Assembly: GCA_030650095.1 (NCBI GenBank)
Contig: JAUSEE010000001.1
Span: 8,199-72,198, forward strand
DNA from: Candidatus Buchananbacteria bacterium
GTDB lineage: Bacteria; Patescibacteriota; Patescibacteriia; 2-01-FULL-39-33
Direction: 5' to 3'
Length of the DNA: 64,000 nucleotides
In this document: piece by piece, positions 17,630 to 52,510 of the stretch
Numbering within the stretch: position 1 is the stretch's first letter
Layout: every line of letters starts with the position of its first letter
Position numbers and translations under genes: made by a program
Notes under the pieces: generated by a model
What the model was told of the DNA's origin: nothing
The model's database searches: none
Seen by the model: the letters and a program-made list of their open reading frames with translations, nothing else

Positions 17630-17633
17630 AATT

Positions 17634-31845: not shown

Positions 31846-32320
31846 TTGTCATCCCGAGCCTATCCTTACTGTCATTGCGAGGCACGAAGCAATCCCGTGT
31901 GATATGAATATATCTGTCATCCCGAGCGTAGTCGAGGGATCCCTTTTTATTTAATATATAATTCCTCTTGTTACTTTTGGTCCGCCAAAAGTAACCAAAA
32001 GCTCGCGAACGTAAAAAATCATATCATTTGGCCTCCCGATATATCGGGAAGCACAATATTTTTTAATGTTCGCCTTATTTTATTATAATTTTATAAATAA
32101 ACATGGCGACAATTGAAAAGACTGTCATTGCGAGGGAGCGGAGCGAACGAAGTAATCTTATGTTTATATCACCTGGGATTGCTTCGCTATGCTCGCAATG
32201 ACTTCTTGAAACATTTTGCGGCCAAAAGGTTTCAAGAGGATATTTGGCGGACCAAAAGTAACAGAAGAAAATTTCCTTGGCTTGTTATTATAAAAAATGT
32301 TATAATAAATAAATAATTTA
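31846..32320. repeat. Composite intergenic repeat region A. It contains hairpin modules gtcatcccgagc..., gtcattgcgagg...gaagcaatc (31871-31895 and 32124-32202), ttgttacttttggtccgccaaaagtaacc..., gcacaatattttttaatgttcgcc... and ttttgcggccaaaaggttt. Paralogous to region B.
   Basis: Multiple 20-60 bp blocks identical or near-identical to blocks in 38940-39650. Confidence 0.8.
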
Positions 32321-32328
32321 AGGTAAAA

Positions 32329-32982
32329 ATGTCAGATAATTTAGCCCATAAATTAAATAATTTTGGTTTAGGCTCTCCAACCCGTCCGGCACCGGAAAGG
32401 AACGATTTTTATGATTCAACCTCACCGGAATTAGCCCTTAACAGAATGAAATACCAAGCCCGCCAGCCACAGAACGAAACAGCTAAACCGGATAAACCAG
32501 CCAGAGATAATAAGGGTGGAAGCACGGCTAATCAACTTAGCCAAGCTAAAAATATCGCCACCAAAGCCCTGTCCGGCGAGGGTGATACTGAAGAAGTTGC
32601 GGAATTAGGAGCTAAAACCGGAACAGCCTGGCTTTTAACCACCCTCTGGGGCTCAGTTTGGCTTGACTACACACTACTGTCCCTTTTGGGACTAAACGCC
32701 ATGTTGGTTGTTTCTCTGGTTTTGCCCAACTATGTCTGCCAATTCGGCGACGATTATCTAATAGGCAAATGGATACCCAGCAGGGATTTAGCCAAATGGA
32801 CAGAAATAATCATACTCATGGTTATAAATGTGATGGTTTTCTCAATTATTATCATATCGGTAGTGTTTATTTATAAGCTAGTCGCTTGTGGCACATGGGA
32901 TCTCTTCAATATTGCTCTATCTGGAGTATTGCCAGGCGGAGATACTGTTCTTTCTGAAGCGCAAAAAAGATGTTTTCAATAA
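32329..32982 (+). CDS. Hypothetical polytopic membrane protein
   Basis: Four predicted transmembrane segments; no family recognised. Confidence 0.5.
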   Translation: MSDNLAHKLNNFGLGSPTRPAPERNDFYDSTSPELALNRMKYQARQPQNETAKPDKPARDNKGGSTANQLSQAKNIATKALSGEGDTEEVAELGAKTGTAWLLTTLWGSVWLDYTLLSLLGLNAMLVVSLVLPNYVCQFGDDYLIGKWIPSRDLAKWTEIIILMVINVMVFSIIIISVVFIYKLVACGTWDLFNIALSGVLPGGDTVLSEAQKRCFQ

Positions 32983-32999
32983 ATCAATAACTTTAAAAT

Positions 33000-34250
33000 A
33001 TGAATTTAGATTGGAAAAAAATAGGCATTATCGCTTTATTCATCGGCGCTGTAGTTTTGTTTGGCTTTTTTATTTATTACTTCTTTTTCCGCCCGTTATT
33101 TTTGCCGACCGCTCCTGGAGATGAAAATATCAACCAAGTAAACGGACAACTGCCGGCCACTGTCAATATCAATGGGCGAATATATATCGTAGATTCCAAT
33201 ACCGGACTGCCGATACTCAATGCCAATGCCGATGATATAACTAATATTCCTACAAGCGAACAGCCATCAGCCACGGCCCAAGGCGGCCTAACCCAAGTTA
33301 GCCAACTAACCAATTCGCCGTCGCTTTTTTCGGCCACCTATAACAACGGCCAAGTAATTTATTACAACCCCAAAGACGGAAAATTTTATGTTATTTCCGC
33401 TGATGGAACAATTAAAGAGTTTAACAGCCAGGTATTTCATAATGTCAGCCAAGTGACTTGGTCGCAAAATAGAAACAAAGCTGTCTTAGAATATCCGGAC
33501 GGATCAAATATAATTTATGATTTTACCACCGGCAAGCAATTAACCCTGCCTCAGCATTGGTACGATTTTAATTTTTCTCCCACCGATCAGCAAATAGCTT
33601 TCAAAAGTGATGCGCTTGATCCGGAAAACAGGTTCTTGGCCGTTTCGCAATTAGACGGCTCCCAACCGATTATTTTGGAAAATATAAGTGATCAGGGGGA
33701 TAGGTTTACAGTTAATTGGTCGCCCAACAAACAAATGGTGGCCACCTACTCCCAAGGCAAGGATTTGGATAAATCAGAAATTTATTTTGTCGGCTTGGAC
33801 AACGAAAATTTTAAATATATGCTGGTAGAAGGCCGTGATTTTAGAGGCCAGTGGTCCCCCACCGGGGACAAGATGGTTTATAGTGTTTACAGCTCCAGTA
33901 ACAATTTCAAGCCTCAACTTTGGATTTCCGATGCCAACCCTGATTCCATCGGCAATAATCGCCGCAGCCTGGGATTGGAAACCTGGTCTGATAAGTGCAC
34001 CTTTTCCGGCAATAACAAAGTTTATTGCGCCGTACCGACAATTCTGCCATCCGGAGCCGGCTTAAACGACAAAATAGCCAATAGCATAGCCGATCAGATA
34101 TACGAAATCAATCTAGAAACCGGAGCTAAGACTTTAATAGCCAGTCCTAATGGTGATCATACTATTTACAATATGATTGTTAATGAAAATCTTAAATATC
34201 TGATATTCACCGATAAAAATAACAATAGAATTTATAAAATTAACTTGTAA
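33000..34250 (+). CDS. Membrane-anchored TolB-like (PD40) beta-propeller protein
   Basis: N-terminal transmembrane helix, then repeated W-x-P/S-D-G-x-x-i/v blades (VTWSQNRNKAVLEYPDGS, FNFSPTDQQIAF, VNWSPNKQMVAT, GQWSPTGDKMVY). Confidence 0.6.
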   Translation: MNLDWKKIGIIALFIGAVVLFGFFIYYFFFRPLFLPTAPGDENINQVNGQLPATVNINGRIYIVDSNTGLPILNANADDITNIPTSEQPSATAQGGLTQVSQLTNSPSLFSATYNNGQVIYYNPKDGKFYVISADGTIKEFNSQVFHNVSQVTWSQNRNKAVLEYPDGSNIIYDFTTGKQLTLPQHWYDFNFSPTDQQIAFKSDALDPENRFLAVSQLDGSQPIILENISDQGDRFTVNWSPNKQMVATYSQGKDLDKSEIYFVGLDNENFKYMLVEGRDFRGQWSPTGDKMVYSVYSSSNNFKPQLWISDANPDSIGNNRRSLGLETWSDKCTFSGNNKVYCAVPTILPSGAGLNDKIANSIADQIYEINLETGAKTLIASPNGDHTIYNMIVNENLKYLIFTDKNNNRIYKINL

Positions 34251-34253
34251 AAC

Positions 34254-34331
34254 GTCATTGCGAGGTACGAAGCAATCCTGTGTTTAATAAACCAGAAGAT
34301 TGCTTTGGTCGTTTCACTCCCTCGCAATGAC
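34254..34331. repeat. Palindromic hairpin element (family gtcattgcgagg...gaagcaatc / gattgctt...cctcgcaatgac)
   Basis: 24-nt arms with imperfect complementarity, read directly. Confidence 0.8.
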
Positions 34332-34352
34332 AAGAAAGCCATTTACCTCGTC

Positions 34353-35111
34353 ATGAACAATGGTATCCTAAATAACCAAAATATAAAAATGCTTAGGCAT
34401 AGAAAACCAAATTATTTAAAATTTATTTTGTTGGTACTGGGAGTTATATTTATTTCTTTTCTAATATTGGCTATGTTCACTCGTCCACTGGAAACAAAAA
34501 GCGATCCCCTGGCTGATGCTTTAAAAAATTTTAACCCCCAGTCAAATATCGAATCATCCAATCTTATAAGTTATGTTAAGAAAAATATCATAACCGAGCC
34601 AACTGTTAACCCTGATTCGCCTGTTTTAGGGCCCGCTGATGCTCCCGTAACCATATTTGAATTTTCTTGCTACGGTTGTCCCGCCAGCCGGGATATCCAG
34701 CCAATTTTAAAAGAGGTACTGGCCAAATACCCGGATAAAGTTAAATTGGTTTGGAAAGATTTAACCCTGCCCGATCTTTACCCTCAAGCCGAACTGGCCC
34801 ATTTAGCTTCCAGATGCGCCCAGGAGCAAAGCAAGTTTTGGCCATATCAAGAACAGCTTTGGCAAAATCAAAATGATTTTTCACTCAACAATCTAAAGAA
34901 AATCGGCCAAGATATTGGCCTCAACGCTTCTACACTAAATGATTGCATCACTAGTAAAAAATTCCAAAACTTAATAGACGCCGATGTCAGCGAGGCTGCC
35001 CAGTTGATGATTTCCGGCACTCCCCATTTTTACATCAACAGCCAAGAAATATTCGGCCTAGCCACTTTGGAAGATTTTGAAACTGTTATAAATGCAGAAT
35101 TAAACAGATGA
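34353..35111 (+). CDS. DsbA-family thiol:disulfide oxidoreductase, membrane anchored. The start is uncertain (34353 or 34389); the track's 34305 start lies inside the hairpin repeat.
   Basis: Transmembrane helix and a thioredoxin fold with a CYGC active site. Confidence 0.65.
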   Translation: MNNGILNNQNIKMLRHRKPNYLKFILLVLGVIFISFLILAMFTRPLETKSDPLADALKNFNPQSNIESSNLISYVKKNIITEPTVNPDSPVLGPADAPVTIFEFSCYGCPASRDIQPILKEVLAKYPDKVKLVWKDLTLPDLYPQAELAHLASRCAQEQSKFWPYQEQLWQNQNDFSLNNLKKIGQDIGLNASTLNDCITSKKFQNLIDADVSEAAQLMISGTPHFYINSQEIFGLATLEDFETVINAELNR

Positions 35112-36013
35112 TTAATTTGATAAACAGAAAAATAATTTTTTATTCTTTTCTATTAATAATTTTGTTATCAACTATTTTTTTTAATTTTAGAGCTAACATT
35201 GCTTCGGCCCAGGATGCAGTAGAAGTTGGATCAACAAAACAACTTTTCGTGCCCAATGTTCCTATAGGAGAATTCAAGGGCGGCCAAATTGATAATGAAC
35301 TACTGGGCAAATACTTTGGCGCTTGGTACAATTTCATCGTCGGCACTGTGGGCATACTAGCTACGGTTATTATTATGTGGGGCGGATTCAAATGGCTCAC
35401 TTCCCGGGGAAACTCAGCCGCCATATCCGATGCCAAAGACCGGATTTATTCAGCTTTAATTGGACTATTTTTAGTTTTTTTGTCTTATACTTTGCTCTAT
35501 CTTATCAATCCCAAATTACTCACCATTAATCTGCCTACGCTGGAAAAAGCCCAAACAGATATTATTGAAACACTTCAAAGGGAAGAACCGCAAGGCCAAG
35601 ATATATCTAGTGGGACTCAAATAGACCGGGCCAAACAAGATGCCAACCTGGCAACTTTTACCGGCCAAGGAATAGATGTTCAAACTCCACAAGTACGGCT
35701 TGACGGCCTAACACCGGAAATTATGAATGTCACCCAGCAAGTCAGAGAAGATTTTGGCCAAGACATAACTGTAACTTCCGGCTATGATCCTGAAAGATCA
35801 AACAGAGATTCCCAGCATATTGTGGGTGAAGCCGTTGATTTAGAAAGAAACACTCCCTTTGATAATTTTATGAGAAATGAAGTGATTGGTAATGCGCCAG
35901 AAGTTTGGAGATATAATGACCAGCCAGCCTATAGAGTTAACTACCATGGAGTAGAAATAATAGTCATAGATGAAACTGTAAATAACTGTTGGCACATAGA
36001 CACTAGATACTAG
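35108..36013 (+). CDS. Secreted protein with a TrbC/VirB2-like pilin module fused to a C-terminal M15-family (VanY-like) zinc peptidase domain
   Basis: Signal peptide; two hydrophobic helices separated by TSRGNSAAISDAKDRIYS; C-terminal SGYDPERSNRDSQHIVGEAVDL (SxHxxGxAxD motif). Confidence 0.5.
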   Translation: MINLINRKIIFYSFLLIILLSTIFFNFRANIASAQDAVEVGSTKQLFVPNVPIGEFKGGQIDNELLGKYFGAWYNFIVGTVGILATVIIMWGGFKWLTSRGNSAAISDAKDRIYSALIGLFLVFLSYTLLYLINPKLLTINLPTLEKAQTDIIETLQREEPQGQDISSGTQIDRAKQDANLATFTGQGIDVQTPQVRLDGLTPEIMNVTQQVREDFGQDITVTSGYDPERSNRDSQHIVGEAVDLERNTPFDNFMRNEVIGNAPEVWRYNDQPAYRVNYHGVEIIVIDETVNNCWHIDTRY

Positions 36014-36027
36014 CAATTAAATATTTT

Positions 36028-36900
36028 ATGCTAAAACCAAAAAAATTCTTAGCAGTTGCTCTAATATTATTTTTGATGTTGCCCTTAATTCTAGCAGCCC
36101 AAAGCCCGGACCAAGCAGGAGACCAAAATAGTTGCGACAGCACTGAAGGTTTATGCCTCAATGTGCCCATAGGCAATGTTAAACATGTTTCTGGCTTTGA
36201 GGAATATTTCAAGCTTTGGTATGAATTTATTGTCGGCACTGTGGGCATACTAGCTACGGTTATTATTATGTGGGGCGGATTCAAATGGCTCACTTCCCGG
36301 GGAAACTCAGCCGCCATATCCGATGCCAAAGACCGAATTTATTCGGCGATTATTGGCTTGTTTTTGGTTTTTTTATCTTATAATATTTTAGCTATTATCA
36401 ATCCTAATTTGGTCTCTATAGGCCTCCCCACATTGGGCACGGCTAAAACAGTAACAGTTAGCAGCTCCGGCCGTGGCACTGGCACTGGAAGCAGTTTGCC
36501 TCCATTAGAAGATATAGATACATCGCCGCTACCGGGCTCAATCAACATAGATTACGAATTTATACCAGATGATCCTGAATTAGAAGATTATTGGGAATTT
36601 AATCAAGAAGTTAGATTTTCACCAGACGGCTTGGGCGAATACTGGGCCTCTTGGGATAATATGGGTGACCAGGCAGAAATACTATACTTTTTAAGAGCCT
36701 CCAGAGATTTGGGCATGGACTTTACTATCACCGGAATTCAAACGGGAGAGGGGTTGTTTGAAGTAACTGATAATGGTACAGTTAACCCCGATGATCCGTT
36801 TGATCAAACTTATGTGAGTTTCACACTCGATGGAGAGATTGTGGGTGACATATTGGGAGTCAGGATATCACTGCCCGAGTATTTGCCCAATTTTGATTAA
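36028..36900 (+). CDS. Secreted paralog with the same TrbC/VirB2-like module and an acidic C-terminal domain
   Basis: 104 nt (36232-36335) are 100% identical to 35339-35442; signal peptide; acidic D/E-rich tail. Confidence 0.5.
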   Translation: MLKPKKFLAVALILFLMLPLILAAQSPDQAGDQNSCDSTEGLCLNVPIGNVKHVSGFEEYFKLWYEFIVGTVGILATVIIMWGGFKWLTSRGNSAAISDAKDRIYSAIIGLFLVFLSYNILAIINPNLVSIGLPTLGTAKTVTVSSSGRGTGTGSSLPPLEDIDTSPLPGSINIDYEFIPDDPELEDYWEFNQEVRFSPDGLGEYWASWDNMGDQAEILYFLRASRDLGMDFTITGIQTGEGLFEVTDNGTVNPDDPFDQTYVSFTLDGEIVGDILGVRISLPEYLPNFD

Positions 36901-36917
36901 AAATAAAAATTAGTTCA

Positions 36918-38252
36918 ATGAGTAAAATATCTATAGTTCATGAATGTTCCAATTGCGGCGCTCAATTTTCCAAATGGCAGGGCCGTTGCAATGAATGCGG
37001 ATCATGGGGCACGGTCAGCCAGGAGTCAATTAATTTGGAAACAAAAAAAGACACCCTAGTATCGCCTGACAAGCCAATAAACTTTAACGACATTGGCTTG
37101 CAGGAAAAAGAAAGAATTAAAATAGGCCTAGGCGAAGTGGATAGGGTTTTAGGAGGCGGCCTTGTTGCCGGCTCTTTAGTTTTACTGGGCGGAGACCCAG
37201 GCATAGGCAAATCAACTTTGGCCTTGCAAATAGCCCAAGGCGTGGGTGATACGCTTTATATTTCTGGTGAAGAATCAGCCCACCAGATTAAAATGAGAGC
37301 CAATAGATTAAAATCAAATCTATCCGGCTTAAAGTTTATACCGCAAACCAGCCTGGAAAAAATCATCGCCACTATTTTGGATCAAAAGCCAAAATTAGCC
37401 ATAATCGATTCCATCCAAACTATTAATTCGTCTGATTCAGCAACCGGCATCGGCTCGGCGGCTCAAATCACCGCCTGCACTAGCAAGCTGATGGAACTAT
37501 CAAAAAAATCAGGCATTCCTATAATCATCATAGGCCATGTCACCAAAGAAGGGTTTGTGGCCGGACCAAAAACATTGGAACATCTGGTAGACACGGTGCT
37601 GTATTTGGAAAGCGACAACCGGGATTTCTATAAGATACTTCGAGGCGTCAAAAACAGATTCGGCTCCACCGGAGAGATAGGCGTTTTTGAAATGACCGAA
37701 GTTGGACTGAAAGAAGTGATAAATCCAACTAATATTTTTGTCGAAAGCCACAGCTCCCCTGCTTCCGGCACAGCCATATCTATAATTATGGAAGGCACGC
37801 GCGCTTTTCTGGTAGAAATACAAGCGCTGGCCTCCAAAACCAGTTTTGGCTATCCACAAAGAAAATCAACCGGCTTTGATTTAAACCGCTTGCAAATGAT
37901 CATTGCTGTTATTTCTAAAATGGCCAAGATTAACCTGGCCAACCATGATATTTATTTAAATATTGCCGGCGGTTTAAAAATAAAAGAAACAGCTACTGAT
38001 CTGGCTGTCTGTTTGGCCATAGTTTCGGCTTATTTGGAAAAATCAATAAGCCAAAATCTATTGATTTTAGGCGAAGTGGGACTCTCGGGTGAAATAAGGG
38101 CCGTATCACAAATAGATAGAAGGATAAAAGAGGCTTCTAAACTTAAATTTAACCGTATAATCACTGCCAAAAATCAAGCTATCAGAAATGTAGAGGACTT
38201 AGAAATTATCCAAGTGTCTAACATAAGCGAAGCCATTAGAACCATATCCTAA
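36918..38252 (+). CDS. radA: DNA repair protein RadA/Sms
   Basis: CSNCGAQFSKWQGRCNECGSW zinc finger, Walker A GDPGIGKST, Lon-like C-terminal domain. Confidence 0.9.
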   Translation: MSKISIVHECSNCGAQFSKWQGRCNECGSWGTVSQESINLETKKDTLVSPDKPINFNDIGLQEKERIKIGLGEVDRVLGGGLVAGSLVLLGGDPGIGKSTLALQIAQGVGDTLYISGEESAHQIKMRANRLKSNLSGLKFIPQTSLEKIIATILDQKPKLAIIDSIQTINSSDSATGIGSAAQITACTSKLMELSKKSGIPIIIIGHVTKEGFVAGPKTLEHLVDTVLYLESDNRDFYKILRGVKNRFGSTGEIGVFEMTEVGLKEVINPTNIFVESHSSPASGTAISIIMEGTRAFLVEIQALASKTSFGYPQRKSTGFDLNRLQMIIAVISKMAKINLANHDIYLNIAGGLKIKETATDLAVCLAIVSAYLEKSISQNLLILGEVGLSGEIRAVSQIDRRIKEASKLKFNRIITAKNQAIRNVEDLEIIQVSNISEAIRTIS

Positions 38253-38330
38253 ATTATTACTGTCATTGCGAGGCACGAAGCAATCTCATATTTACATTAC
38301 CTAAGATTGCTTCGCTACGCTCGCAATGAC
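38252..38330. repeat. Palindromic hairpin element (cleanest copy of the family)
   Basis: gtcattgcgaggcacgaagcaatc - 19-nt loop - gattgcttcgctacgctcgcaatgac. Confidence 0.85.
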
Positions 38331-38359
38331 AGAAAACGTAAACAGAAGCAGCAAACAAC

Positions 38360-38902
38360 ATGCCTAAAAAACTGCCACAAAATTTTTACCAATCAGATAC
38401 TCTTAAAGTAGCTAGGGAGCTACTCGGAAAATATCTAATCAGAAAAATTGGTAGTAAAAAAATAATCGGCCAAATAATAGAAACCGAGGCTTACTGCGGA
38501 CCAAACGATTTGGCGTCCCATGCCAGTTGCGGACGCACCGCCAGAACAGAAATTATGTTCGGCCCGGCCGGTTATTTGTATGTTTATATGATCTATGGCA
38601 TGTACTATTGCCTCAATATTGTCACCGAAGAAAAAGACAATCCCAGCGCTGTTTTAATCAGAGCCGTGAAACCTGTTGCCGGCTTAGACTCTAAAATCAA
38701 AACCGACGGGCCGGGCAAATTGTGCCGGGCTTTTAAAATTGATAAAAAACAAAATAATACTAAAGTTTTTGGGAAAGAAGCAGAAATCTGGATTGAAGAT
38801 TGGCAGGAGAAAACAAATAAAATAAAATCTTCACCCCGGATTGGAGTAGACTATGCCCAAGAGTATAGGGATAAGCCTTGGAGATTTTATATTGAAGATT
38901 AA
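38360..38902 (+). CDS. mpg: DNA-3-methyladenine glycosylase (Mpg/AAG family)
   Basis: IETEAYCGPNDLASHA...GPAGYLYVYMIYGMYYCLN core motifs. Confidence 0.8.
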   Translation: MPKKLPQNFYQSDTLKVARELLGKYLIRKIGSKKIIGQIIETEAYCGPNDLASHASCGRTARTEIMFGPAGYLYVYMIYGMYYCLNIVTEEKDNPSAVLIRAVKPVAGLDSKIKTDGPGKLCRAFKIDKKQNNTKVFGKEAEIWIEDWQEKTNKIKSSPRIGVDYAQEYRDKPWRFYIED

Positions 38903-38912
38903 AAAATTCTGG

Positions 38913-38934
38913 GTAATTTTTGTTACGTAGCATG
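38913..38934. repeat. 22-bp perfect palindrome gttacgtagcatgctacgtaac just after the mpg stop
   Basis: Exact dyad symmetry. Confidence 0.7.
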
Positions 38935-38939
38935 CTACG

Positions 38940-42631: not shown

Positions 42632-42716
42632 GGTTAGAAAAATTATTAATTACTTTATCTCAAAAATTGGGATAAAAATTTATATGCGGAGAGGGTGGCC
42701 TGGCCTGCCGGTAGGC

Positions 42717-42868: not shown

Positions 42869-42922
42869 CCGCTATCTCATATCTAAATTTTTATCCTAAA
42901 AATTGGGATAAAAATTTATATG

Positions 42923-43491: not shown

Positions 43492-44196
43492 TTAACTTCT
43501 TATTAAAACCAAGCCCCAAACCGTTTTATAGCCCGCTTCTTTTAATTTTTTGGCGCATTCCTCCAGAGTTGATCCGGTAGTATAGACATCGTCTACTATA
43601 ACAATCGGCTTATTATAATCGGCTTGCAAATTGACAGTGGTTTTGAAACTGCCGGTAATATTAACATGCCTTTTACTGGCGCCCAGACCCACTTGATGGC
43701 GATTGTACTTTATCTTTTTTAACAATTGATCATTAATTTTATTACCACCAATACCGCTGATGATATCGCAAATCAATTGCGATTGATTAAAGCCTCTCTC
43801 CAAAAATCTCCTAGGGTGAAGCGGCACGGGTGTTAAAACAAAAAAATCCCGCCAAAGGGGATTCTTGCCAAAGTATTCCACAAATCTTGGTTTCAAATGA
43901 TTAAAAATATCAGGAATAAAATTATATTTTACCAGATGTATCATTTTCTGGCTTAACTTGTTGTTCTCCAAAATTACCAACAGTCCATCCAGATTGGAAA
44001 TATGACGGCAATAGCCGCAAACCTGTCCGTCTTTGTTTTCCAAACCGCAAATCGGGCATAAATTATAATTATACAACCTTAATTGGCTCAAACATCTAAG
44101 GCAAAGCCAGTCGCCTTCAGCTCTACAAGACAAGCACTTAATGGGAAAAATAATGTCTAAAAATATTTTTTTTAATTTACTGCCAAACAGCTTCAT
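43492..44196 (-). CDS. comFC: ComF-family protein (competence; phosphoribosyltransferase domain)
   Basis: N-terminal Cys4 (CLSCR...CLRC...CPIC...CGYC) and the PRTase motif IVIVDDVYTTGST. Confidence 0.8.
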   Translation of the reverse strand: MKLFGSKLKKIFLDIIFPIKCLSCRAEGDWLCLRCLSQLRLYNYNLCPICGLENKDGQVCGYCRHISNLDGLLVILENNKLSQKMIHLVKYNFIPDIFNHLKPRFVEYFGKNPLWRDFFVLTPVPLHPRRFLERGFNQSQLICDIISGIGGNKINDQLLKKIKYNRHQVGLGASKRHVNITGSFKTTVNLQADYNKPIVIVDDVYTTGSTLEECAKKLKEAGYKTVWGLVLIRS

Positions 44197-44740
44197 CTAC
44201 TTTCCAGTCATCGCCTGTTTTTAAAACACTAAGTTGAACTTTGGAATAATCAATTATCGGTTCGGCTTGCTCGCCTTGGAATTTACTTAGCTGAAGCGAT
44301 ATTAAAACCATGGCCTTATCTGCGCTTAAATATATAAGCTGGTTATTTAGAGCCTTGGCTTCTTGAGCTTCAAAACCATTAGTTCCTATTCGAGAAGTGG
44401 CGATGAAACTATCAATGGAAGATTGCATTTTAGATGTGGACAATATTTTTAAATCTTCTAAATTCTTAAACTTGGCATCGCTGGAATAGCTGGCAAACCT
44501 CTCGGCAAAGGAAGAAGTAAGCGATTCTAGCCCCAAAGGGTAATCCTTTTCCGTGCTTTGTCTTTCGGCGCTAGGCGGAGGCAACAAATCAATTTGGCCA
44601 AGAGACGTGGGCTGATTGCCATTTTCATTTTCTGGCGGATTAACTTCGGCCGGTTTTTTATTGAAAAAAAATAAAAATATCAAAACTGCCGCCACTAAGG
44701 CCAGCGCTGAAATTAAAATTATTTTATTTCTTCTGGACAT
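44177..44740 (-). CDS. Membrane-anchored extracytoplasmic protein, possible VirB8-like T4SS component
   Basis: N-terminal transmembrane helix, ~150-aa periplasm-type domain, position directly downstream of virB4. The VirB8 assignment is speculative. Confidence 0.3.
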   Translation of the reverse strand: MSRRNKIILISALALVAAVLIFLFFFNKKPAEVNPPENENGNQPTSLGQIDLLPPPSAERQSTEKDYPLGLESLTSSFAERFASYSSDAKFKNLEDLKILSTSKMQSSIDSFIATSRIGTNGFEAQEAKALNNQLIYLSADKAMVLISLQLSKFQGEQAEPIIDYSKVQLSVLKTGDDWKVDEAVWQ

Positions 44741-44759
44741 GTTATTAAATATTTAATAT

Positions 44760-46658
44760 TTATTCTCTGGCTAACGACTGCTCGAATTCTTTCTTGGCTT
44801 GTTCAATTTCCAGTAGCTGCCTGGGATCAGAAGTTATCAATTGATCTTCCGAATAAGAAGCAACTACTCTTATGGCCGCATGCTTAGCGCCGGCAAAAAA
44901 GATGCCTTCACCCACACCGCATTCCAACAGCAAGTATTTTTCCCCTTCGGTAAGCAGGAATGTCTTTTGAATCAAACTGGCGGCAGCAGGCGACTGCTTC
45001 ATAAGAAGCTGTAAAGACGAGTTATTAACAATGGCTTGGCCATAAGGAGAAGTCAAAAAATCATTAACATCTTGGGTAATCGTGGTAACGCCCAAATAAT
45101 ACTTACGGCATCTTTTGACCAAGGCAAATATAAACTTGGCGCTATCCTCTCTTTGCATCAGCCACCAGGCTTCATCCACTACCAGTATCCTTCTTTTGGT
45201 TTCGCTTCTAACCACATTCCAAATATAATTAACGATGGTATAAATGGCCAGGGGTTTTAATTCATCCTCTAAATCACGCACACTGAAAGCCACCAATTGA
45301 TTATTCATGGCCACATTGGTGGGATTATTCAAGAGTCCGGCAAAAGTGCCTTCGGTGTATTTTTTTAATCTTAAAACTATATTTTCACCATTTTCCATGC
45401 CTTCCAAAATCTCTGCAAAATCCTGCATAATAGGCGGTTCCACCAGAGATAAATCAGTATTGGCTGTTATATCTTTTTTGGCGTAAGTCTCCAGCAGGGC
45501 TCTGTCGATTATGGAATCTTCTTCCGGTGTGATATCGCCGATCATCAGTTTAATCAAACCCTTGACTGTTATCACCGCTCCCCTGATGATATCATCGGTC
45601 CTGGCATCTTCGCCAATGGATCTGGGCAAATCAAAAGGATTTATCTTGCTCTCGGAATTAAGGGAAACATCAATATAGGTTCCACCGACAGCATCGCACA
45701 GATGCTTGTATTCCCTTTCGGGATCAATAATGATAACTTCGGTGCCAAACATCAAGCTTCTTAAAACTTCTAATTTTATGGCGTATGATTTGCCGGCGCC
45801 GGAAGTGGCAAAAACAACCGAGTTGGCATTTTGCAGAGAAAATCTGTCAAACAGAATCAAACTGTTATTATGCCTATTGATGCCAAAGAGCACTCCGTTG
45901 TCAGAGGTTAAATCGGAAGAAACAAAGGGAAAAGAACTGGCCGCCGGAGAGGTGTTCATATTGGTTAGAATCTGCAGATCATCGGAAGCAATGGGCAAAG
46001 TGGAATTAAAGCCTTGTTCGGCTTGATAAAAAACCCTTCTGGAATAAACCAAAGTGGAACCCAAAATATTTTCTACGCTTTCACAAGAATTGTCTAAGGC
46101 CTCCAGAGTCTTATCATAAACAGTTATATACAAAGCTGTCTGAAAAAAATGCTCAATGCCTTGGGTTAAATCATCCCTTAATTTTTCCATATCTCTTAGA
46201 GCCGTTTCCCGAAGCGGATCGCGAGGAGCGCCTTTTTCGGCATCAGAAATAAGTCCGGCTTGCAAGGCGCCGACTTTTTTCTTGAGCTGTTTTAAAATGA
46301 TAGGAGCTTTAACCGGATAAAAATAAATAGCCATATCAGCCGTAACATTAAGGTTGATAATGGGGGCAAACCAGCCCACATTTATATATCTGGGATATTC
46401 AATGACAAAAATCGTTTTGATAAAATAATCCCCCAATTTAATATACGAGCCGGTTACTTCCAGTGAAGCCGGAGAAATAAAATCACGCACCGAAACAATG
46501 CCCCGCCTATAAACCCTTTCTTCCTCCAGGGCTTTTTTGCTGGTTTGTATCTCTTGAGAGAGCATTTCTTTTCTTTGGCTGGCAGTCAAAGCCGGAGCCC
46601 GGTCCAGTTCCTGTGCTCTTGTTTTATCAACCTTATTCAGTTGACTTGGATCAAACAT
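44760..46658 (-). CDS. virB4: VirB4/TrbE/CagE-family type IV secretion ATPase
   Basis: Walker A ATSGAGKS, Walker B VVDEAWW, 632 aa (a short N-domain). Confidence 0.8.
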   Translation of the reverse strand: MFDPSQLNKVDKTRAQELDRAPALTASQRKEMLSQEIQTSKKALEEERVYRRGIVSVRDFISPASLEVTGSYIKLGDYFIKTIFVIEYPRYINVGWFAPIINLNVTADMAIYFYPVKAPIILKQLKKKVGALQAGLISDAEKGAPRDPLRETALRDMEKLRDDLTQGIEHFFQTALYITVYDKTLEALDNSCESVENILGSTLVYSRRVFYQAEQGFNSTLPIASDDLQILTNMNTSPAASSFPFVSSDLTSDNGVLFGINRHNNSLILFDRFSLQNANSVVFATSGAGKSYAIKLEVLRSLMFGTEVIIIDPEREYKHLCDAVGGTYIDVSLNSESKINPFDLPRSIGEDARTDDIIRGAVITVKGLIKLMIGDITPEEDSIIDRALLETYAKKDITANTDLSLVEPPIMQDFAEILEGMENGENIVLRLKKYTEGTFAGLLNNPTNVAMNNQLVAFSVRDLEDELKPLAIYTIVNYIWNVVRSETKRRILVVDEAWWLMQREDSAKFIFALVKRCRKYYLGVTTITQDVNDFLTSPYGQAIVNNSSLQLLMKQSPAAASLIQKTFLLTEGEKYLLLECGVGEGIFFAGAKHAAIRVVASYSEDQLITSDPRQLLEIEQAKKEFEQSLARE

Positions 46659-46683
46659 AAATAAAAAAATAAAAAATTATTAA

Positions 46684-47358
46684 CTACTGCTCCACATCTA
46701 ATTTATTGATATCAGCTATCTTCTGGCTTTCAGAAATAGTCGGATTATAGGTATTATAAAATAGTTCTATCAGTGATTGGGTGTTTAAAATAGAAACTCT
46801 AAGTCCCATGCTCATTAAGCCGGAAATTATTTTATCAACTTCAATGAAAAGCTCCTGATGGCGCTTGGAAAATTCTTTTTGGCTTAATTTAATCAGTTTG
46901 GTCGGTGAAACAACATCGGTGCTTCTTTCCCAAAAATTTCTTTTTTTGCCAAAAGACGCGTTATAATAAACCACTACGTAGAATTTTTTGGTCATGATAT
47001 CTCCTAATTCCACTAATTCGGAAATATATTTTCGGTATTCCGATGTTTGGAGTTTGAGTAAATCATTGGCCTGCTCCTCTTCGGCTCTTTTGATATCCGC
47101 CAAGTAATTATCCAAATTCAACTTCCGGGATTGTATCACTATTTGCAAAGTGGTATCCAAGGAATTTAAAAAAGATATATAGCCGGCCACAATGGCATTT
47201 TGTTCTTCTTCTGATTTCAAAGCAAAATTCATGCTGGATACCAGAAGAACGGATCGAAGAGTGCCATCTTTCATAATAACAGCATCATCCCTTATTTCAG
47301 AAATAGTCATGTAGCTTTGGGTGCTGGGTGTGGATTTTGTCGCTTTTCTGTTAGCCAT
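46684..47358 (-). CDS. Hypothetical protein between the PrgI-like gene and virB4. Possibly a detached N-terminal VirB4 domain.
   Basis: Position and size only. The VirB4 ORF lacks the ~200-aa N-domain seen in longer homologs. Confidence 0.3.
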   Translation of the reverse strand: MANRKATKSTPSTQSYMTISEIRDDAVIMKDGTLRSVLLVSSMNFALKSEEEQNAIVAGYISFLNSLDTTLQIVIQSRKLNLDNYLADIKRAEEEQANDLLKLQTSEYRKYISELVELGDIMTKKFYVVVYYNASFGKKRNFWERSTDVVSPTKLIKLSQKEFSKRHQELFIEVDKIISGLMSMGLRVSILNTQSLIELFYNTYNPTISESQKIADINKLDVEQ

Positions 47359-47379
47359 ACTTGCTTAACTTTAGCTATT

Positions 47380-47841
47380 TTATTTCTTTAAATTATTTAC
47401 ATGATTGATTACGCCTTCTCCTTGATAAACGCCGCCGGTATCAACTATCAGGGCTAATTCAGACAGATTAGAAGCATTGATAATCTTTTTTCTAACAGCC
47501 ACTTCCGGCCCCTTTTCTTCTTTGGGCTTTTTTAAACTCATTTTTATATCCGCCTCACTGATGGTTTTACGCCAAATTTTAAGCTTGGGATTTTTGATGG
47601 TAGTTATAAAATTAAGCAGGAAATTATGAAAATGCTGGCCGTTTATTTTAATGAAAGCAAAGGTAACGGTGATGACCAAAACCAGCAAGCCGGAAACCAC
47701 AAACAAAGAAAAATCAAAAATTTTATAAAAGATAAAAATAATGATTCCTCCTATTACCATCTCTATAAACTGGCGGACAGTTATGGGGCCGATTATCCTG
47801 TCTTCAACATCTAAAAATTGTGGTACGGTTATTTGTTCCAT
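47380..47841 (-). CDS. PrgI/VirB3-like small membrane protein
   Basis: EDRIIGPITVRQFIEMVIGGIII motif, two transmembrane helices, position upstream of virB4. Confidence 0.55.
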   Translation of the reverse strand: MEQITVPQFLDVEDRIIGPITVRQFIEMVIGGIIIFIFYKIFDFSLFVVSGLLVLVITVTFAFIKINGQHFHNFLLNFITTIKNPKLKIWRKTISEADIKMSLKKPKEEKGPEVAVRKKIINASNLSELALIVDTGGVYQGEGVINHVNNLKK

Positions 47842-47905
47842 AAACCATGAATAGTAAATTATAAATTCAAAATATCAAGCTCCAAATAAATATCAAATCT
47901 CAAAC

Positions 47906-48274
47906 TCAAATTGGCTTATTTTTGCTCTTTTCTATTATAGCAGCAAATATTTTTAAAAGCTGACAGGTTTCATCCAAAAGCAGCTCCATTTTCACCTTAA
48001 GCCGCGGATTGGCTTCAATAATCAGTTTTAACCAATAGACTGTCTCTTTAGCTTCTTTACGACATATCCTCATTCTAAATTGAAAATCTTTTTTTGTTTC
48101 AGTTTCATTAGCTTCTCTATAATTAGCCCCTAGCGATAACCCCGATCTAACCACCTGCCTTACCAATACATTATTAACAATGTTTAGTGGAATATTCTTC
48201 GCCATTTTTATTATTCTCTTGCCATATTCCAGTGTTCTATCTTCAAGGTCATAACTATTTGTAATTTCTACCAT
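47906..48274 (-). CDS. Four-helix-bundle protein (23S rRNA intervening-sequence protein family)
   Basis: YGKRIIKMAKNIP...QVVRSGLSLGANYREANE core typical of this family; 122 aa. Confidence 0.65.
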   Translation of the reverse strand: MVEITNSYDLEDRTLEYGKRIIKMAKNIPLNIVNNVLVRQVVRSGLSLGANYREANETETKKDFQFRMRICRKEAKETVYWLKLIIEANPRLKVKMELLLDETCQLLKIFAAIIEKSKNKPI

Positions 48275-48328
48275 TGTGATTTATTTGATATTTGAAATTT
48301 TGAATTTGTTATTTTATATTTTTAGTGT

Positions 48329-49819
48329 TTAATATCTTAAATCTTTATTTATCTCCCCAATAGAGTTGAATTCTTCTATAGATAAGGTGGGCTTATGGCT
48401 TTCTATTCTCTCATTAATTATATCATCAATGCTGCGTCCCTGTCGCATGCTTTCCTGGCCCAACAACCTGTAAAATCTGTTAATTTCATTTTTATGCCAG
48501 GCTTCTACCGCTTCTAATTTCTTTATATAGGAATCTTTCTCCAGCAGTTCTATCTTGTCTTTTATTTTAGCGGTAGCCTCATGAGGCGTCTGTCCCAGCC
48601 GGCGGAAATTTATCAAAGTCATAGTGCCCAGCTCTTCCACTGGCCCGACCAGTGTAGTGTTTATCCTAACGCCATCCACCGATGGCTTGCCAAATCTGAT
48701 ATTTCTGGGTGAGAGTGTTGATTTGGCCATAGGCTGAGGCTGTGGAGCAATAGGAACTTTAGTTTCCAGCGGTTTTATGGCCGCTGGCAAAACTAGTGGA
48801 GTTGGAGCCACCGGCACAGGAGGAACAATTTTAATTTTTTCTGGAACATTAATGGGTTGAACTTTTCTGATTTGATTAAAATCAGTTATCTTCGGCCGAA
48901 TCATTAAATCATCGCCTTGCGGTGATTTTATCACCGGCAAACCGTCTTCTTCTTCAATTTTAGGCGCCAAAGACAAATCCGGTTTGACTAGCCTTTTTTC
49001 TGCCACTTTCGGCTCACTTACCGCTGGCGCCGGTTCTTTTATTATCGAGCCATTCTTTTTGGCTTCCAAAGTGGTTTTAGCCGGAACAAAGGGCTTTTTA
49101 ACCGGAAAGTTAATTGGTTTTTTTTCACTGGATGTTTCCCCTTCTTTAGGCAAAAGTCCTTGGCTTATTTTTTCACGAATTAAAGCAATCACTTTTCCCG
49201 CTTCGTCCTCGGTCATGGCCAAACCGCCTACCTTACGGCTTTTCTTTAAAACTTCCAATGTTTCCATTTCGTCTCTGATATCTTTTAGCCGCGCCATAAT
49301 TATATTTTTAAAACGGCTTAAAATAACTTCATCTCCATTAATGCTGTAACCGGACTGCGAAATAATAAGTTCGGCCAAAGAAGAATAATCATGTGCTTTT
49401 GGCTTACTAGCAGAAGAAGAAATTATTTTTTTTATTTCTTCGTCGTCTTCGGGTGAAAAAGAAATGTGGGTATTAGGTTGAACTGGTTGTTTTATTTGTG
49501 GCTCTTTACTGTCTATTTCAGCCGATCCGCCCAAGCCGTTAAGCAATTCTTCCACCCCGCTGATTTGATCTTTGAGCGGCATAAACCTGCTTAAAACGGC
49601 AGCCAGAGCTATTTTTTTTACAGTCTCTTCGTCTTTTCTAACCGCTTTTTTAAGTTCGGGCAAAAAATCAGCCAGTTTAACCGAACCTAAAATAATTCTG
49701 GAAATCAACTTGATTATTTCTTTGATTTCACTATCGGTCAAAGCAAAAGATGCCAGCCAAGCATTGGCCTTTTTTAATTCTACCACATCATCAAAAATAT
49801 TTTTAATTTCTTCCGACAT
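48329..49819 (-). CDS. Hypothetical protein with a Pro/Lys-rich linker (T4SS accessory?)
   Basis: ORF track; low-complexity middle; no family recognised. Confidence 0.35.
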   Translation of the reverse strand: MSEEIKNIFDDVVELKKANAWLASFALTDSEIKEIIKLISRIILGSVKLADFLPELKKAVRKDEETVKKIALAAVLSRFMPLKDQISGVEELLNGLGGSAEIDSKEPQIKQPVQPNTHISFSPEDDEEIKKIISSSASKPKAHDYSSLAELIISQSGYSINGDEVILSRFKNIIMARLKDIRDEMETLEVLKKSRKVGGLAMTEDEAGKVIALIREKISQGLLPKEGETSSEKKPINFPVKKPFVPAKTTLEAKKNGSIIKEPAPAVSEPKVAEKRLVKPDLSLAPKIEEEDGLPVIKSPQGDDLMIRPKITDFNQIRKVQPINVPEKIKIVPPVPVAPTPLVLPAAIKPLETKVPIAPQPQPMAKSTLSPRNIRFGKPSVDGVRINTTLVGPVEELGTMTLINFRRLGQTPHEATAKIKDKIELLEKDSYIKKLEAVEAWHKNEINRFYRLLGQESMRQGRSIDDIINERIESHKPTLSIEEFNSIGEINKDLRY

Positions 49820-49831
49820 TTTAGATTATTT

Positions 49832-52510
49832 TTAGATGTCTTTTAACTGATCAGCTCTCTTTTGTTCTGTAGAAGCAGGAGCTGTACCAACTGCCTGTCT
49901 TCTGACTTCGGTAGCGATCTTGCTAGCCAAAGCTCCACCCTCAGTGGAAGTACTTAGTGTTTTGATAACATTAATATTCATTTTTTCACCAGCTATTTCC
50001 ATTTGGGAACCACTTCTATTTAAACCTTTCATAAATTCAGCGTCTTTAGCTGATACAGTAGCCATAACATCTTGAAGTATGGCTCGTTTTTCGGCATTAA
50101 CTTTTACGCCACCCACGGTACTATCAGCAATATTAACTTCATTGAATGAGGCGCCAGAAGCTAGAGCATTTTTAAACGTTCTTTGGTATTGTAATTTATC
50201 ACCAGTGGCAATCTCGGCTTCTGTTATTTTATTAATAACAGCTTCAAAACTATCAGATAATTTCTTTTTGATAATTGGTGATTGATCTTTAAACTGGTTG
50301 GGACTAACCAAGTCACCAAAACTCTTAACAAATTCCTCGCTGACCTCCTTCATCTTTTTGCCAATATCACTGCTATTGTTGGACACAAAAGTTCTAATAG
50401 AGTCAACATCATCGGTATTAGTCTGGTCAAAGGTCTGCATGACATGATTAAAGCTGGTAGCTTTATTAAATCTGTCACGCATTTTTTCACCGCTATCAGT
50501 AAGTTTACCACTGCCATCACGTTCAAAAGTGTTATGATCAACCTTGCCATAAATCGCTGTCTTTTGTTTATCGGTTAAATCACTATACATTTCACTTTCA
50601 TCTTTTTCTTTGGTATGTTTAGCCATGAATGTAGCCAATTCATCACCTTTGGGTGTAGAACCTTTAGGCGCCAGGGCATCGTTCAAAGATAAAAGCTGAG
50701 TTTCACTCAAACTGCCCATCATTTCATGAGCTTTAACCTTGCCCGTCCTAACATCAGAAGTAAAGGCATCTGTGCGGAAAGTTTTGCCGTCATCACCCAT
50801 ATAAACCGTATCATAAGCCAAGCCCGGATTATATTTTTTGGTGTTGTCCATAAAGGTAGCAGCCAACTCTGGCGGCAACATCTTTTTGGCATCGTTGATC
50901 AATTTAATATTTTCGGCTCTGTTGGCTGTGTCATCATCTCTAAACATGCCTTGCTTCATCATAGCTTGAGTAGCGGCAATCTTAGCATATTTATCACCTT
51001 TAGTAGCCAGTGATCGCAAGTCTTTTTCACTCATGTCATCAACCTTAAGGGCGCTGGCTCTAGTAGTAATCCTTTCTTGTTCGGCTTTAGCTTTGGTGGT
51101 AGCCAGTTTAATTTGTCGTTTGTCCACTGCTTGCCCACCTAGCCTGCCAAGTATGGGTATTTTTCTAGCTAGCGGTATAGCCATAGCACCAGCTAATACT
51201 CCGGCGCCAGCCAAGCCGGCGGTGCCAGCTACAGTACCAATAGCGGCCTTTTTGCCCCATTTTTGCAAACCAGCCACGCCTTTGCCGGCCCACTGGGCTC
51301 CGGCCACACCGGTTTTTTGGCCAAAAACCAAACTGCCCACCATTAAGCCGATAATTATTAAGAAATCAAAAACGTTTACCGGATCTTCTAATTCCGATAA
51401 TCCTATTTTCTTATTCAAATCATCTGTTTTACTTAGAAGTATGCTGGCGCCATCATTAACTTGGTATGCTCCCTCTTTGCCACTGCTAATTGTACTAGGA
51501 TCTTGAACATTAATTGAACCGCTGAAAAACGACAGGTAAAGAAAAAACAACATTATCGGTCCCACCACCAAATATTTAGTTATTTCACTCCACCACATGC
51601 CGGCGTATTGCTGGCCTTTGGGGAAAGTGGTGAGAAGATAGGCCAGGGGTGACAGAATAATCAAAAACCAGAGCATAACGATCCTATAAACCAAAATAAT
51701 GGTAATAATGGCAATTACCACTACAGCCACCACCGATAATATTAGGGCAAATAAAAGCGTTTTAATGGCTGCCCCAGGGCTTAAACTGCCAGGAACTGGC
51801 TCGGTCCAATCAAACTGTCCGGCATCAATGCGGTAAAGCTTGTCCAAGCCTAGAGCTAAAAGTATGATATTGCCACCACTGCTAACACCCTGTATGGTCC
51901 CGGCAAACCAGAGTGTTAAGACTTGGGAACCGTCAATCATAATGCCGGTAAAAGTTTTGGAGAAATTTATTAAAACCGCCATCACCAGCAGTTTGGGCAG
52001 AAGCTGGCGATTATAATTGGGCACCCTTAAAATCGTGCCCACAGCTATGGCTAAAAGAATAACGATAAAGAAATTATTAGCCACATCACGCACAATCGCC
52101 CAACCATTGATAACTATTTGATTATCTAAGAAATGATTATAACTGGCTACTTTAACCATGACTATTATTAAAAGATTAACCAGCCAGCTGAAAAAGGTGG
52201 CGATATAAAAAACTATCCAAGCAAAGACATTGGCAATGGAATTTTCGGTGCTGTTAGCATCATCGCCTGCCTTAGGCACGCCACTCGCCATACAATCATT
52301 ATAAATACGTTTAAGTTCACTTCCATCCGGATCAGTTGTGTTACTTGTTTTACTGGCAGCATAATCACCGCATTCTTTGTCTCGTGAATCAATAAAGCTA
52401 CTTCCAGCAGCTATTGCCTGAACAAAAGAAACGGAACTACTAAAAACTACCACCAACAAAAGAGTAGTTAGTAGTACGGCGCTGATTAATTTTTTTCTTT
52501 TGGTGGTCAT
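49832..52510 (-). CDS. VirB6/TrbL-like polytopic membrane protein with N- and C-terminal soluble extensions
   Basis: Signal peptide, 6-7 transmembrane helices in the middle, Gly/Ala-rich segment, long C-terminal domain; 892 aa. Confidence 0.5.
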   Translation of the reverse strand: MTTKRKKLISAVLLTTLLLVVVFSSSVSFVQAIAAGSSFIDSRDKECGDYAASKTSNTTDPDGSELKRIYNDCMASGVPKAGDDANSTENSIANVFAWIVFYIATFFSWLVNLLIIVMVKVASYNHFLDNQIVINGWAIVRDVANNFFIVILLAIAVGTILRVPNYNRQLLPKLLVMAVLINFSKTFTGIMIDGSQVLTLWFAGTIQGVSSGGNIILLALGLDKLYRIDAGQFDWTEPVPGSLSPGAAIKTLLFALILSVVAVVVIAIITIILVYRIVMLWFLIILSPLAYLLTTFPKGQQYAGMWWSEITKYLVVGPIMLFFLYLSFFSGSINVQDPSTISSGKEGAYQVNDGASILLSKTDDLNKKIGLSELEDPVNVFDFLIIIGLMVGSLVFGQKTGVAGAQWAGKGVAGLQKWGKKAAIGTVAGTAGLAGAGVLAGAMAIPLARKIPILGRLGGQAVDKRQIKLATTKAKAEQERITTRASALKVDDMSEKDLRSLATKGDKYAKIAATQAMMKQGMFRDDDTANRAENIKLINDAKKMLPPELAATFMDNTKKYNPGLAYDTVYMGDDGKTFRTDAFTSDVRTGKVKAHEMMGSLSETQLLSLNDALAPKGSTPKGDELATFMAKHTKEKDESEMYSDLTDKQKTAIYGKVDHNTFERDGSGKLTDSGEKMRDRFNKATSFNHVMQTFDQTNTDDVDSIRTFVSNNSSDIGKKMKEVSEEFVKSFGDLVSPNQFKDQSPIIKKKLSDSFEAVINKITEAEIATGDKLQYQRTFKNALASGASFNEVNIADSTVGGVKVNAEKRAILQDVMATVSAKDAEFMKGLNRSGSQMEIAGEKMNINVIKTLSTSTEGGALASKIATEVRRQAVGTAPASTEQKRADQLKDI

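Follow-up and report, generated by a model that had tools for sequence, protein, structure and literature searches.

The stretch of DNA analysed here, referred to as the window, covers 64 kb of a contig from a metagenome-assembled genome (MAG) of Candidatus Buchananbacteria, class ABY1. It carries on its forward strand two adjacent genes, ORF A and ORF B, which are old paralogs of the Patescibacteria VirB2-like type IV secretion system (T4SS) pilin family (PF18895), in the long form typical of ABY1. The ATG of ORF A overlaps the stop codon of the preceding dsbA-like gene (ATGA), 14 nt separate the stop of ORF A from the start of ORF B and 17 nt separate the stop of ORF B from the start of radA. 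Over the first 169 aa the two proteins share 51% identity (E 8e-48), and they are unrelated beyond. In the public records, where both proteins lie on one contig of 84.9 kb, ORF A is named 'D-Ala-D-Ala carboxypeptidase family metallohydrolase' (P0001, 100%) and ORF B 'pilin' (P0014, 100%). The original prediction, made from the letters of the window, described tandem paralogs sharing a block of 104 identical nucleotides, and both copies of this block were indeed found to agree at 104 of 104 positions. The two genes and their parts are as follows.

35108..36013, forward strand: ORF A, 301 aa, VirB2-like T4SS pilin of the long form whose head is a putative M15-type zinc peptidase
35108..35206, forward strand: ORF A signal peptide, residues 1-33, with basic n-region, hydrophobic core and ASA/QD, as judged from sequence, hydropathy and a helix at 2-33
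35306..35515, forward strand: ORF A pilin core, residues 67-136, with first transmembrane helix (TM1), KWLTSRGNS loop and second helix (TM2); PF18895 match at residues 72-132, predicted helices 65-98 and 103-133, short-pilin HMM match at E 1e-20
35339..35442, forward strand: first copy of the gene-conversion tract, 104 nt with 100% identity to 36232-36335
35516..35632, forward strand: ORF A acidic linker, residues 137-175, pI 4.2, with residues 141-161 predicted to be disordered (pLDDT <50)
35633..36010, forward strand: ORF A head, residues 176-301, predicted Peptidase M15A-C-terminal/LAS-type domain, candidate Zn ligands H237, D244 and H296
36028..36900, forward strand: ORF B, 290 aa, VirB2-like T4SS pilin of the long form whose acidic head is lineage-specific
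36199..36408, forward strand: ORF B pilin core, residues 58-127; PF18895 match at residues 64-117, predicted helices 57-89 and 95-124
36232..36335, forward strand: gene-conversion tract, copy 2, 104 nt
36526..36897, forward strand: ORF B acidic head, residues 167-290, pI 4.05, alignable only with P0021 (locus L022)

Both proteins pass the gathering score of the T4SS_pilin family PF18895 (36.6 bits for ORF A and 33.9 bits for ORF B against 26.6), whereas their matches to TrbC/VirB2 (PF04956), which span both helices, stay below the threshold of that family (17.6 and 20.8 bits against 27.9). The VirB2-like assignment is therefore based on the sister family PF18895, and the TrbC/VirB2 module first proposed for this locus has to be read in this sense. 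To obtain relatives, the 70-aa core was used as a profile in an exhaustive search, which returned 58,368 cluster representatives at E<=0.001; 99 single-module long forms were taken from the top of these. PF18895 is matched by 98 of the 99, and sub-threshold PF04956 matches over both helices occur in 36. An HMM of the canonical pilins of 100-120 aa retrieved ORF A and ORF B at E 1e-20 and no other ORF in the 64 kb. In NCBIfam the two ORFs (window 35108-36897) have sub-threshold matches only (E 7e-4 and 8e-3), both with NF045849, named 'Mbov_0395 family pilin-like conjugal transfer protein' and belonging to integrative and conjugative elements of Mycoplasma; this is a hint that VirB2-like hairpin proteins are also present in other wall-less or monoderm T4SS.

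The topology that had been proposed, a signal peptide followed by two hydrophobic helices around a short polar loop, is seen in both proteins by hydropathy as well as in the AlphaFold models. Hydropathy displays three hydrophobic segments per protein, namely an N-terminal signal-like segment and two helices, and the models place an N-terminal helix (residues 2-33 in ORF A, 5-22 in ORF B) ahead of the two core helices listed above. A linker of low confidence follows (residues 141-161 in ORF A and 127-165 in ORF B). The loop between the hairpin helices, KWLTSRGNSAAISDAKDR, is basic. The topology of the VirB2/TraA pilins is established; by analogy with it and by the positive-inside rule, the head would be extracytoplasmic, with the loop on the cytoplasmic side of the membrane. 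Loop and helices are strongly conserved, with invariant and nearly invariant columns in the family alignments. ORF A and ORF B share a common layout, in which a Sec signal peptide is followed by a conserved NVPIG segment of short length, the two-helix hairpin, a disordered linker and a head of ~125 aa. This layout differs from that of a canonical PF18895 pilin, which has ~100-120 aa and ends just after helix 2 (those retrieved here measure 97-123 aa, if two fragments with 56 and 88 aa are set aside): at 301 and 290 aa, ORF A and ORF B continue for ~165 aa of linker and head past this point.

The head of ORF A matches Peptidase_M15_3 (PF08291) over residues 187-247 with 34.3 bits, against a gathering score of 23.2. 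Since VanY (PF02557, the M15B D,D-carboxypeptidases) gave no Pfam match in ORF A even at E<=10, the head does not belong to the VanY subfamily; of the 'VanY/M15-type' peptidase originally announced, the M15 assignment is retained and the VanY one is dropped. The expected SxHxxGxAxD motif is present as S-Q-H-I-V-G-E-A-V-D, and the zinc ligand pattern (H-x6-D plus a C-terminal His) is complete, with H237, D244 and H296 (in WHID) as candidate ligands. In an alignment of 12 homologs D244 is invariant and both histidines are nearly so. The head is modelled by AlphaFold with a pLDDT of ~90, and a Foldseek comparison of the ORF A model with BFVD retrieved phage 'Peptidase M15A, C-terminal' proteins with probabilities of 0.99-1.0. 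A PDB sequence search with the full-length profile gave only a weak M15-like match, the 'LysM domain-containing protein' 9flh (E 0.028). On its motifs and predicted fold, the ORF A head is thus assigned as a putative M15/LAS-type zinc peptidase, resembling the M15A C-terminal/LAS enzymes (phage endolysin-type, MepA-like fold) in its HMM match, its HxxGxAxD...WH motif and its predicted-fold matches. It differs from them in belonging to a divergent subfamily, many members of which fall below the Pfam threshold, and in the loss of an arginine that is discussed below. No SLT, lysozyme or CHAP catalytic domain was found in ORF A or ORF B by Pfam scan.

The C-terminus of ORF B is an acidic domain, as had been noticed originally: it contains 27 D/E against 4 K/R, which corresponds to the pI given above. 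Neither a Pfam family nor a PDB fold was matched by this head; the ORF B model is of low confidence (pLDDT 59) and the PDB search performed with it returned no usable match.

The heads of the 99 long forms were surveyed by Pfam scan, a separate large protein search with the 70-aa core profile having returned short pilins only and hence being of no use as a fusion survey. The scan identified lysozyme (9), SLT (7), M15_3 (5), YkuD (3) and NlpC/P60 (1) heads; the only other Pfam family was a single weak DUF5084 match. Among these representatives, the domain matches show the Pfam-recognisable heads to be restricted to predicted peptidoglycan-acting enzymes. A custom HMM raised the number of M15-like heads to 17 when both motifs had to be intact, and to 23 when the first motif was counted. 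The remaining heads, including that of ORF B, are without assigned family. Proteins with up to 17 pilin modules per polypeptide are also present in the databases (P0082-P0105 and others; P0095 has 1775 aa and P0087 1147 aa); they may be real poly-pilins, or else products of gene calling with a wrong genetic code, by which tandem pilin genes were joined.

A similar picture emerges from the related loci (numbered L001 onwards), of which 16 came from GTDB species representatives and 6 were contigs obtained through protein look-ups. In most pairs at least one pilin carries a peptidoglycan-acting head. M15 heads are found in the window, L005, L008, L011 and L021, and in L003 by motif and clustering; SLT heads in L003, L007, L009, L010, L012, L016 and L021; lysozyme heads in L008 and weakly in L014; and a YkuD head in L001. 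A glycosidase and a peptidase head are paired at two loci, L003 (SLT with M15-like) and L008 (lysozyme with M15-like). A 658-aa protein with a weaker match to the pilin core is encoded at 9830-11803 of L020.

The neighbourhood of the pair in the window includes a T4SS cluster on the opposite strand, whose genes are listed together with the conserved neighbours of the pilins.

32329-32982, forward strand: orf217, conserved upstream operon gene
33000-34250, forward strand: TolB-like beta-propeller, 416 aa, conserved upstream operon gene
34305-35111, forward strand: DsbA-like thioredoxin, conserved upstream operon gene
36918..38252, forward strand: radA, conserved downstream neighbour
44177..52510, reverse strand: T4SS core cluster, with no pilin gene inside
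44177-44740, reverse strand: orf186, T4SS cluster
44760-46658, reverse strand: VirB4 ATPase (P-loop) part of a split VirB4, T4SS cluster
46684-47358, reverse strand: N-terminal part of the split VirB4, T4SS cluster
47380-47841, reverse strand: PrgI/VirB3-like gene, T4SS cluster
47906-48274, reverse strand: 23S_rRNA_IVP-family gene, four-helix protein between the PrgI-like gene and orf495
48329-49819, reverse strand: orf495, T4SS cluster
49832-52510, reverse strand: VirB6/TrbL-like gene, T4SS cluster

Further upstream lie the genes for LemA, an M48 peptidase and ClpB, and radA is followed by those for a methylpurine glycosylase (MPG) and RecG. The order that recurs in the related loci is orf217, beta-propeller, (DsbA), pilin, pilin, RadA, (MPG), RecG, ..., orf186, VirB4, PrgI, orf495. 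The genes orf186/VirB4 are present in nine of these loci (L007, L008, L012, L014-L016 and L017-L019). In the three from Kerfeldbacteria (L017-L019), a single long pilin directly adjoins orf186/VirB4 and is followed by the beta-propeller and DsbA, and in the sister contig L021 three pilins stand in a row. The co-occurrence with T4SS genes that had originally been proposed as a check is therefore observed as conserved synteny with VirB4, PrgI and VirB6. No other VirB2-like ORF was detected in the 64 kb, either in searches with the core sequences or with HMMs of the long and short pilins. Together with the synteny, this result supports the initial suggestion that the pair supplies the missing pilin and wall-remodelling part of the T4SS.

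Several observations on these neighbouring genes may be recorded here. The gene orf217 (193-453 aa in relatives, without family) and the beta-propeller gene always accompany the pilins in L001, L003 and L005-L019, preceding them except in Kerfeldbacteria, where they follow the pilin; both may be unrecognised accessory parts of the T4SS. The counterpart of the 23S_rRNA_IVP gene in L001 (10437-10802) also matches bAvd, an accessory protein of diversity-generating retroelements. The VirB6-like gene is adjoined by an ORF of 3017 aa (52737-61790, reverse strand), which has the carbohydrate-binding family CBM_4_9 as its sole Pfam match. The gene order typical of Patescibacteria was also met under other labels, 'Candidatus Methylomirabilis sp.' for L020 and 'uncultured Gammaproteobacteria' for L008-L010, L012 and L017, which are probably default labels or the result of mis-binned MAGs.

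Three publications bear on this locus. In Southlakia epibionticum, predicted VirB2-like pilin subunits of the T4SS cluster are essential (Wang et al. 2023, PMC10633639). In a screen of 3,035 genomes for PF18895 and PF04956, Quinonero-Coronel et al. 2025 (PMC12102498) found pilins in 1,948 assemblies, with 441 arrays of 2-11 genes whose within-array identity averages 25% and reaches 54% at most; comF, recG and radA are common in the ABY1 T4SS loci of that study, and most Patescibacteria genomes with VirB2 lack a recognisable VirB1, a statement repeated in a 2025 review (PMC12857230) which treats a Patescibacteria T4SS pilus as a possibility only. The pair described here resembles these VirB2-like pilins in its PF18895 score above threshold, its signal peptide and hairpin, its tandem paralogs, its association with VirB4, PrgI and VirB6 and its radA/recG/comF locus. 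The family, the tandem arrays and this type of ABY1 locus are thus already published, and the head-carrying long form is undescribed within the literature searched: neither fusions of pilins to wall enzymes nor gene conversion of the pilin core is mentioned in the searchable text and supplements of PMC10633639, PMC12102498 and PMC12857230.

The pair is most likely the pilin and wall-remodelling part of the nearby T4SS. The hairpin would place both proteins in the membrane pool acted on by the VirB4/VirB3/VirB6 machine, by which the heads would be displayed at the wall, and on a pilus too if one polymerises; the peptidase head of ORF A would cut the peptide stems of peptidoglycan and thereby provide a wall-opening, VirB1-like function, for which no separate gene was found among the scanned ORFs of the cluster, wall hydrolases elsewhere in the genome not having been surveyed. 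Considered as a whole, the explanation in which head-carrying VirB2-like pilins serve the T4SS, the M15 head opens the wall and the core is homogenised by gene conversion is judged to be probable.

The closest functional parallel is offered by PrgK of pCF10 and TraG of pIP501, the VirB1-type wall hydrolases of monoderm T4SS, which are membrane-anchored and combine SLT with CHAP. By analogy of function only, the long-form pilins would likewise be enzymes that act on peptidoglycan outside the cytoplasm, are held by a membrane anchor and go with a T4SS of monoderm type, and the glycosidase and peptidase heads standing side by side in L003 and L008 would mirror the two activities of PrgK/TraG. They differ in having an M15/LAS peptidase in place of CHAP, in being anchored by a pilin hairpin and in distributing the two activities over separate paralogs instead of a single protein. 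The hairpin itself is comparable to the TrbC/VirB2 pilins of Gram-negative T4SS (T-pilin, F-pilin TraA) with respect to predicted topology and size, basic loop and sub-threshold PF04956 match. Unlike those, ORF A and ORF B score below the PF04956 gathering score, belong to a monoderm host, carry a large C-terminal head and are not known to be cyclised or to form a pilus.

A number of points weigh against the assignment of the pair to the T4SS as pilin and wall enzyme. The genes lie ~8 kb away from the T4SS cluster, with radA, a DNA glycosylase gene, recG, tRNA genes and comF in between. Searches of PDB sequences with the full-length profile and with the 70-aa core profile retrieved no solved conjugative pilin. 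The PF08291 match covers only positions 17-76 of the 108 in the profile, and the full-length ORF A model compared with the PDB by Foldseek retrieved mostly helical proteins, with a weak MepA match only (E 0.68). In addition, ORF A reads SGYDPERSNRDSQH where most homologs have SGYRP. The arginine of the SGYR motif is thereby replaced, so that the activity or specificity of ORF A may differ; we presume the role of this residue in M15 enzymes to be the one played by the SG[YF]R arginine of VanX/VanY-type enzymes, and the arginines of a 2-residue insertion might substitute for it in ORF A. A head of 125 aa on every subunit may be hard to fit in a VirB2-type filament. Finally, we know of no experiment on any long-form pilin and of no Patescibacteria T4SS for which a pilus has been shown.

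Two other functions were weighed against this assignment. The heads could be directed at the wall of a host bacterium, being carried out on the T4SS pilus or on a contact structure in order to digest the wall at the attachment site, as a weapon or drill. Such a function would suit the cultured Patescibacteria, which live as epibionts and cannot grow on the host without their T4SS and pilin array (PMC10633639, PMC12857230); the diversity and rapid swapping of the heads are as expected for a varying target, and no relaxase or coupling protein was found among the scanned genes of the T4SS cluster. The heads are, however, not known to leave the cell surface, no immunity-like gene stands beside the pair and the YkuD heads, being transpeptidases, fit wall remodelling better than attack. 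A host-directed role is accordingly held to be possible but doubtful. The hairpin could also be a plain membrane anchor which tethers wall enzymes or exoproteins, with neither a pilus nor any tie to the T4SS, the synteny being incidental. The distance to the T4SS genes, the presence of housekeeping-type genes (radA, DNA glycosylase) in the same operon and the long heads, atypical for VirB2, would agree with this. Yet the hairpin and the pilins of 100-120 aa that accompany virB4 across the phylum (PMC12102498) are members of one family, the Kerfeldbacteria pilin adjoins orf186/VirB4, and loop and helices are conserved far beyond the needs of a simple anchor, so that an incidental tether appears quite improbable.

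The reading of the pair as head-carrying T4SS pilins also includes a particular mode of evolution, which the 104-nt block makes apparent. The identity of the block ends in a mismatch directly at both sides, no third copy occurs in the window, and the surrounding sequence forms a wider in-register repeat of 236 nt, 82% identical (35323-35558 / 36216-36451). Either gene conversion or strong purifying selection had been put forward in order to account for it. In the 70-codon core, codons for the same amino acid differ synonymously in 15 of 26 cases outside the block against 0 of 34 inside (P about 2e-13), and the identity of ORF A and ORF B in successive 30-nt windows peaks at 1.00 and falls to 0.17 (0.33, 0.47, 0.87, 1.00, 1.00, 0.97, 0.73, 0.70, 0.57, 0.50, 0.17). 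Protein-level purifying selection is ruled out as the cause of the block by this contrast and this profile, and the cross-genome comparison settles the choice in favour of gene conversion.

In 12 of the 15 genomes possessing a pair, the 210-nt cores of both copies are closer to each other than to the pilin of any other genome, the identity of the core DNA within a genome being 210/210 nt in L008, 98% in L013, 96% in L012, 95% in L005, 94% in L014 and 84% in the window, with its 104-nt run. The segment preceding the core behaves differently: two ortholog types are recognised in six genomes (A, F[TV]PNVPIG.FKG; B, C.LNVPIG.VK.VSG.E), with an amino acid identity of 62% for the same type across genomes against 31% between types within one genome. 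For the TM1-loop DNA the relation is inverted, with 90% identity within a genome against 75% within a type across genomes. Compared with the three-gene contig L021, ORF A resembles copy 1 in its N-terminal segment (score 90 against 31) and copy 2 in its linker and head (score 508 against 32); relative to this contig it is, from its alignment scores, a mosaic. Taken across genomes, these nucleotide comparisons show the 104-nt block to be a recent gene-conversion tract. Because of the likeness of the cores within genomes, the ortholog types of the pre-core segments and the mosaic structure of ORF A, recombination between the tandem copies across the shared core is concluded to homogenise the hairpin repeatedly in each genome and to re-assort N-terminal segments and heads. 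We infer that, through this homogenisation, each paralog stays compatible with its partner or with the T4SS machine. In some genomes the conversion tracts run past the core, and for this reason sequence clustering of the heads merged the lysozyme type with the M15 type; these were separated by the Pfam scans.

Selection on the DNA or RNA itself, through an embedded promoter, an RNA structure or a binding site, would be another cause of the identity, and weak promoter-like matches do lie inside both copies of the block (35349-35376 and 36242-36269, 9/12 positions). Such matches are nevertheless not significantly enriched in the region (31 against 22.7 +/- 4.8 expected), and the block has no match in Rfam, which found tRNAs only. 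Nucleotide-level selection is rejected as very improbable because the orthologous cores of other genomes use different codons for an almost identical peptide, the nucleotide identity between genomes averaging 0.75, so that there is no constraint on the nucleotides; nor is the exact block conserved from genome to genome. An assembly artefact, i.e. a collapsed or chimeric repeat in a MAG contig that was seen once, is hardly credible at the level of the assembled sequences because tracts of 35 to 210 nt form the same pattern in many assemblies that different projects produced independently, and both ORFs remain in frame while the identity decays gradually at both sides.

Gene conversion between the pilin copies is comparable to the concerted evolution of tandem surface-protein genes, in which homologous recombination between tandem paralogs maintains a constant assembly module next to variable exposed parts. 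The constant regions of the neisserial pilin genes are an example. What sets the present case apart is that homogenisation acts on the constant hairpin and that enzymatic heads are re-assorted as whole units, with no silent cassette system seen. The tandem VirB2 paralogs of Anaplasma and Bartonella are a further comparison, cited in PMC12102498.

Extending the preferred reading, ABY1 Patescibacteria might build a T4SS pilus or short stalk from mixed VirB2-like subunits bearing enzyme or binding heads on flexible linkers. Such an enzyme-coated filament would bore through the wall, possibly that of a host, and gene conversion would keep the hairpins compatible and swap the heads (M15, SLT, lysozyme, YkuD, NlpC/P60, acidic) in order to track different walls. 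This extension is considered unlikely as it stands. Patescibacteria account for a large share of bacterial diversity, and a T4SS with a pilin array is essential for life on the host in one genetically tested lineage. If wall enzymes are built onto the pilins of ABY1, the missing VirB1 would be explained, and heads of ~125 aa, concrete, testable and expressible alone, could reveal the wall and the bond that are attacked. The concerted evolution of the hairpin combined with the shuffling of heads also illustrates clearly, on a small scale, how very small genomes evolve in modular fashion by recombination. Should the heads be only membrane-tethered housekeeping enzymes, the result would amount to a routine refinement of annotation.

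Some minor features of the window remain to be described. Promoter and terminator scans gave only consensus-level hints of an operon extending from ~32277 to 38944. The pilin operon is bracketed by two pairs of intergenic direct repeats, 31961-32022 / 39011-39072 (62 nt, 97% identity) and 32147-32202 / 38275-38330 (56 nt, 86% identity). The 62-nt repeat contains the perfect hairpin GTTACTTTTGG-TCCG-CCAAAAGTAAC, whose core occurs exactly twice in the window, against a chance expectation of none, and is absent from the 20 related loci compared. An ORF of 1258 aa (22642-26418, reverse strand) has no Pfam match and contains internal repeats with start-to-start distances of 183-378 nt (23072-23620). 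A separate type IV pilus locus, distinct from the T4SS pilins, occupies 12861-20739 on the reverse strand and comprises the following genes.

12861-14072, reverse strand: PilC
14083-15150, reverse strand: PilT-like ATPase
15179-15565, reverse strand: response regulator
15593-17338, reverse strand: PilB with MshEN
17634-18257, reverse strand: PilO-like
19621-20739, reverse strand: PilM

The small ORFs at 9003-12029 are candidate type IV pilin genes. Lastly, a direct repeat of 164 nt and 95% identity (42705-42868 / 43033-43196) is located around the tRNA-Ser genes at 42922-43009 and 43255-43345, which suggests a local duplication of the segment flanking the tRNA.

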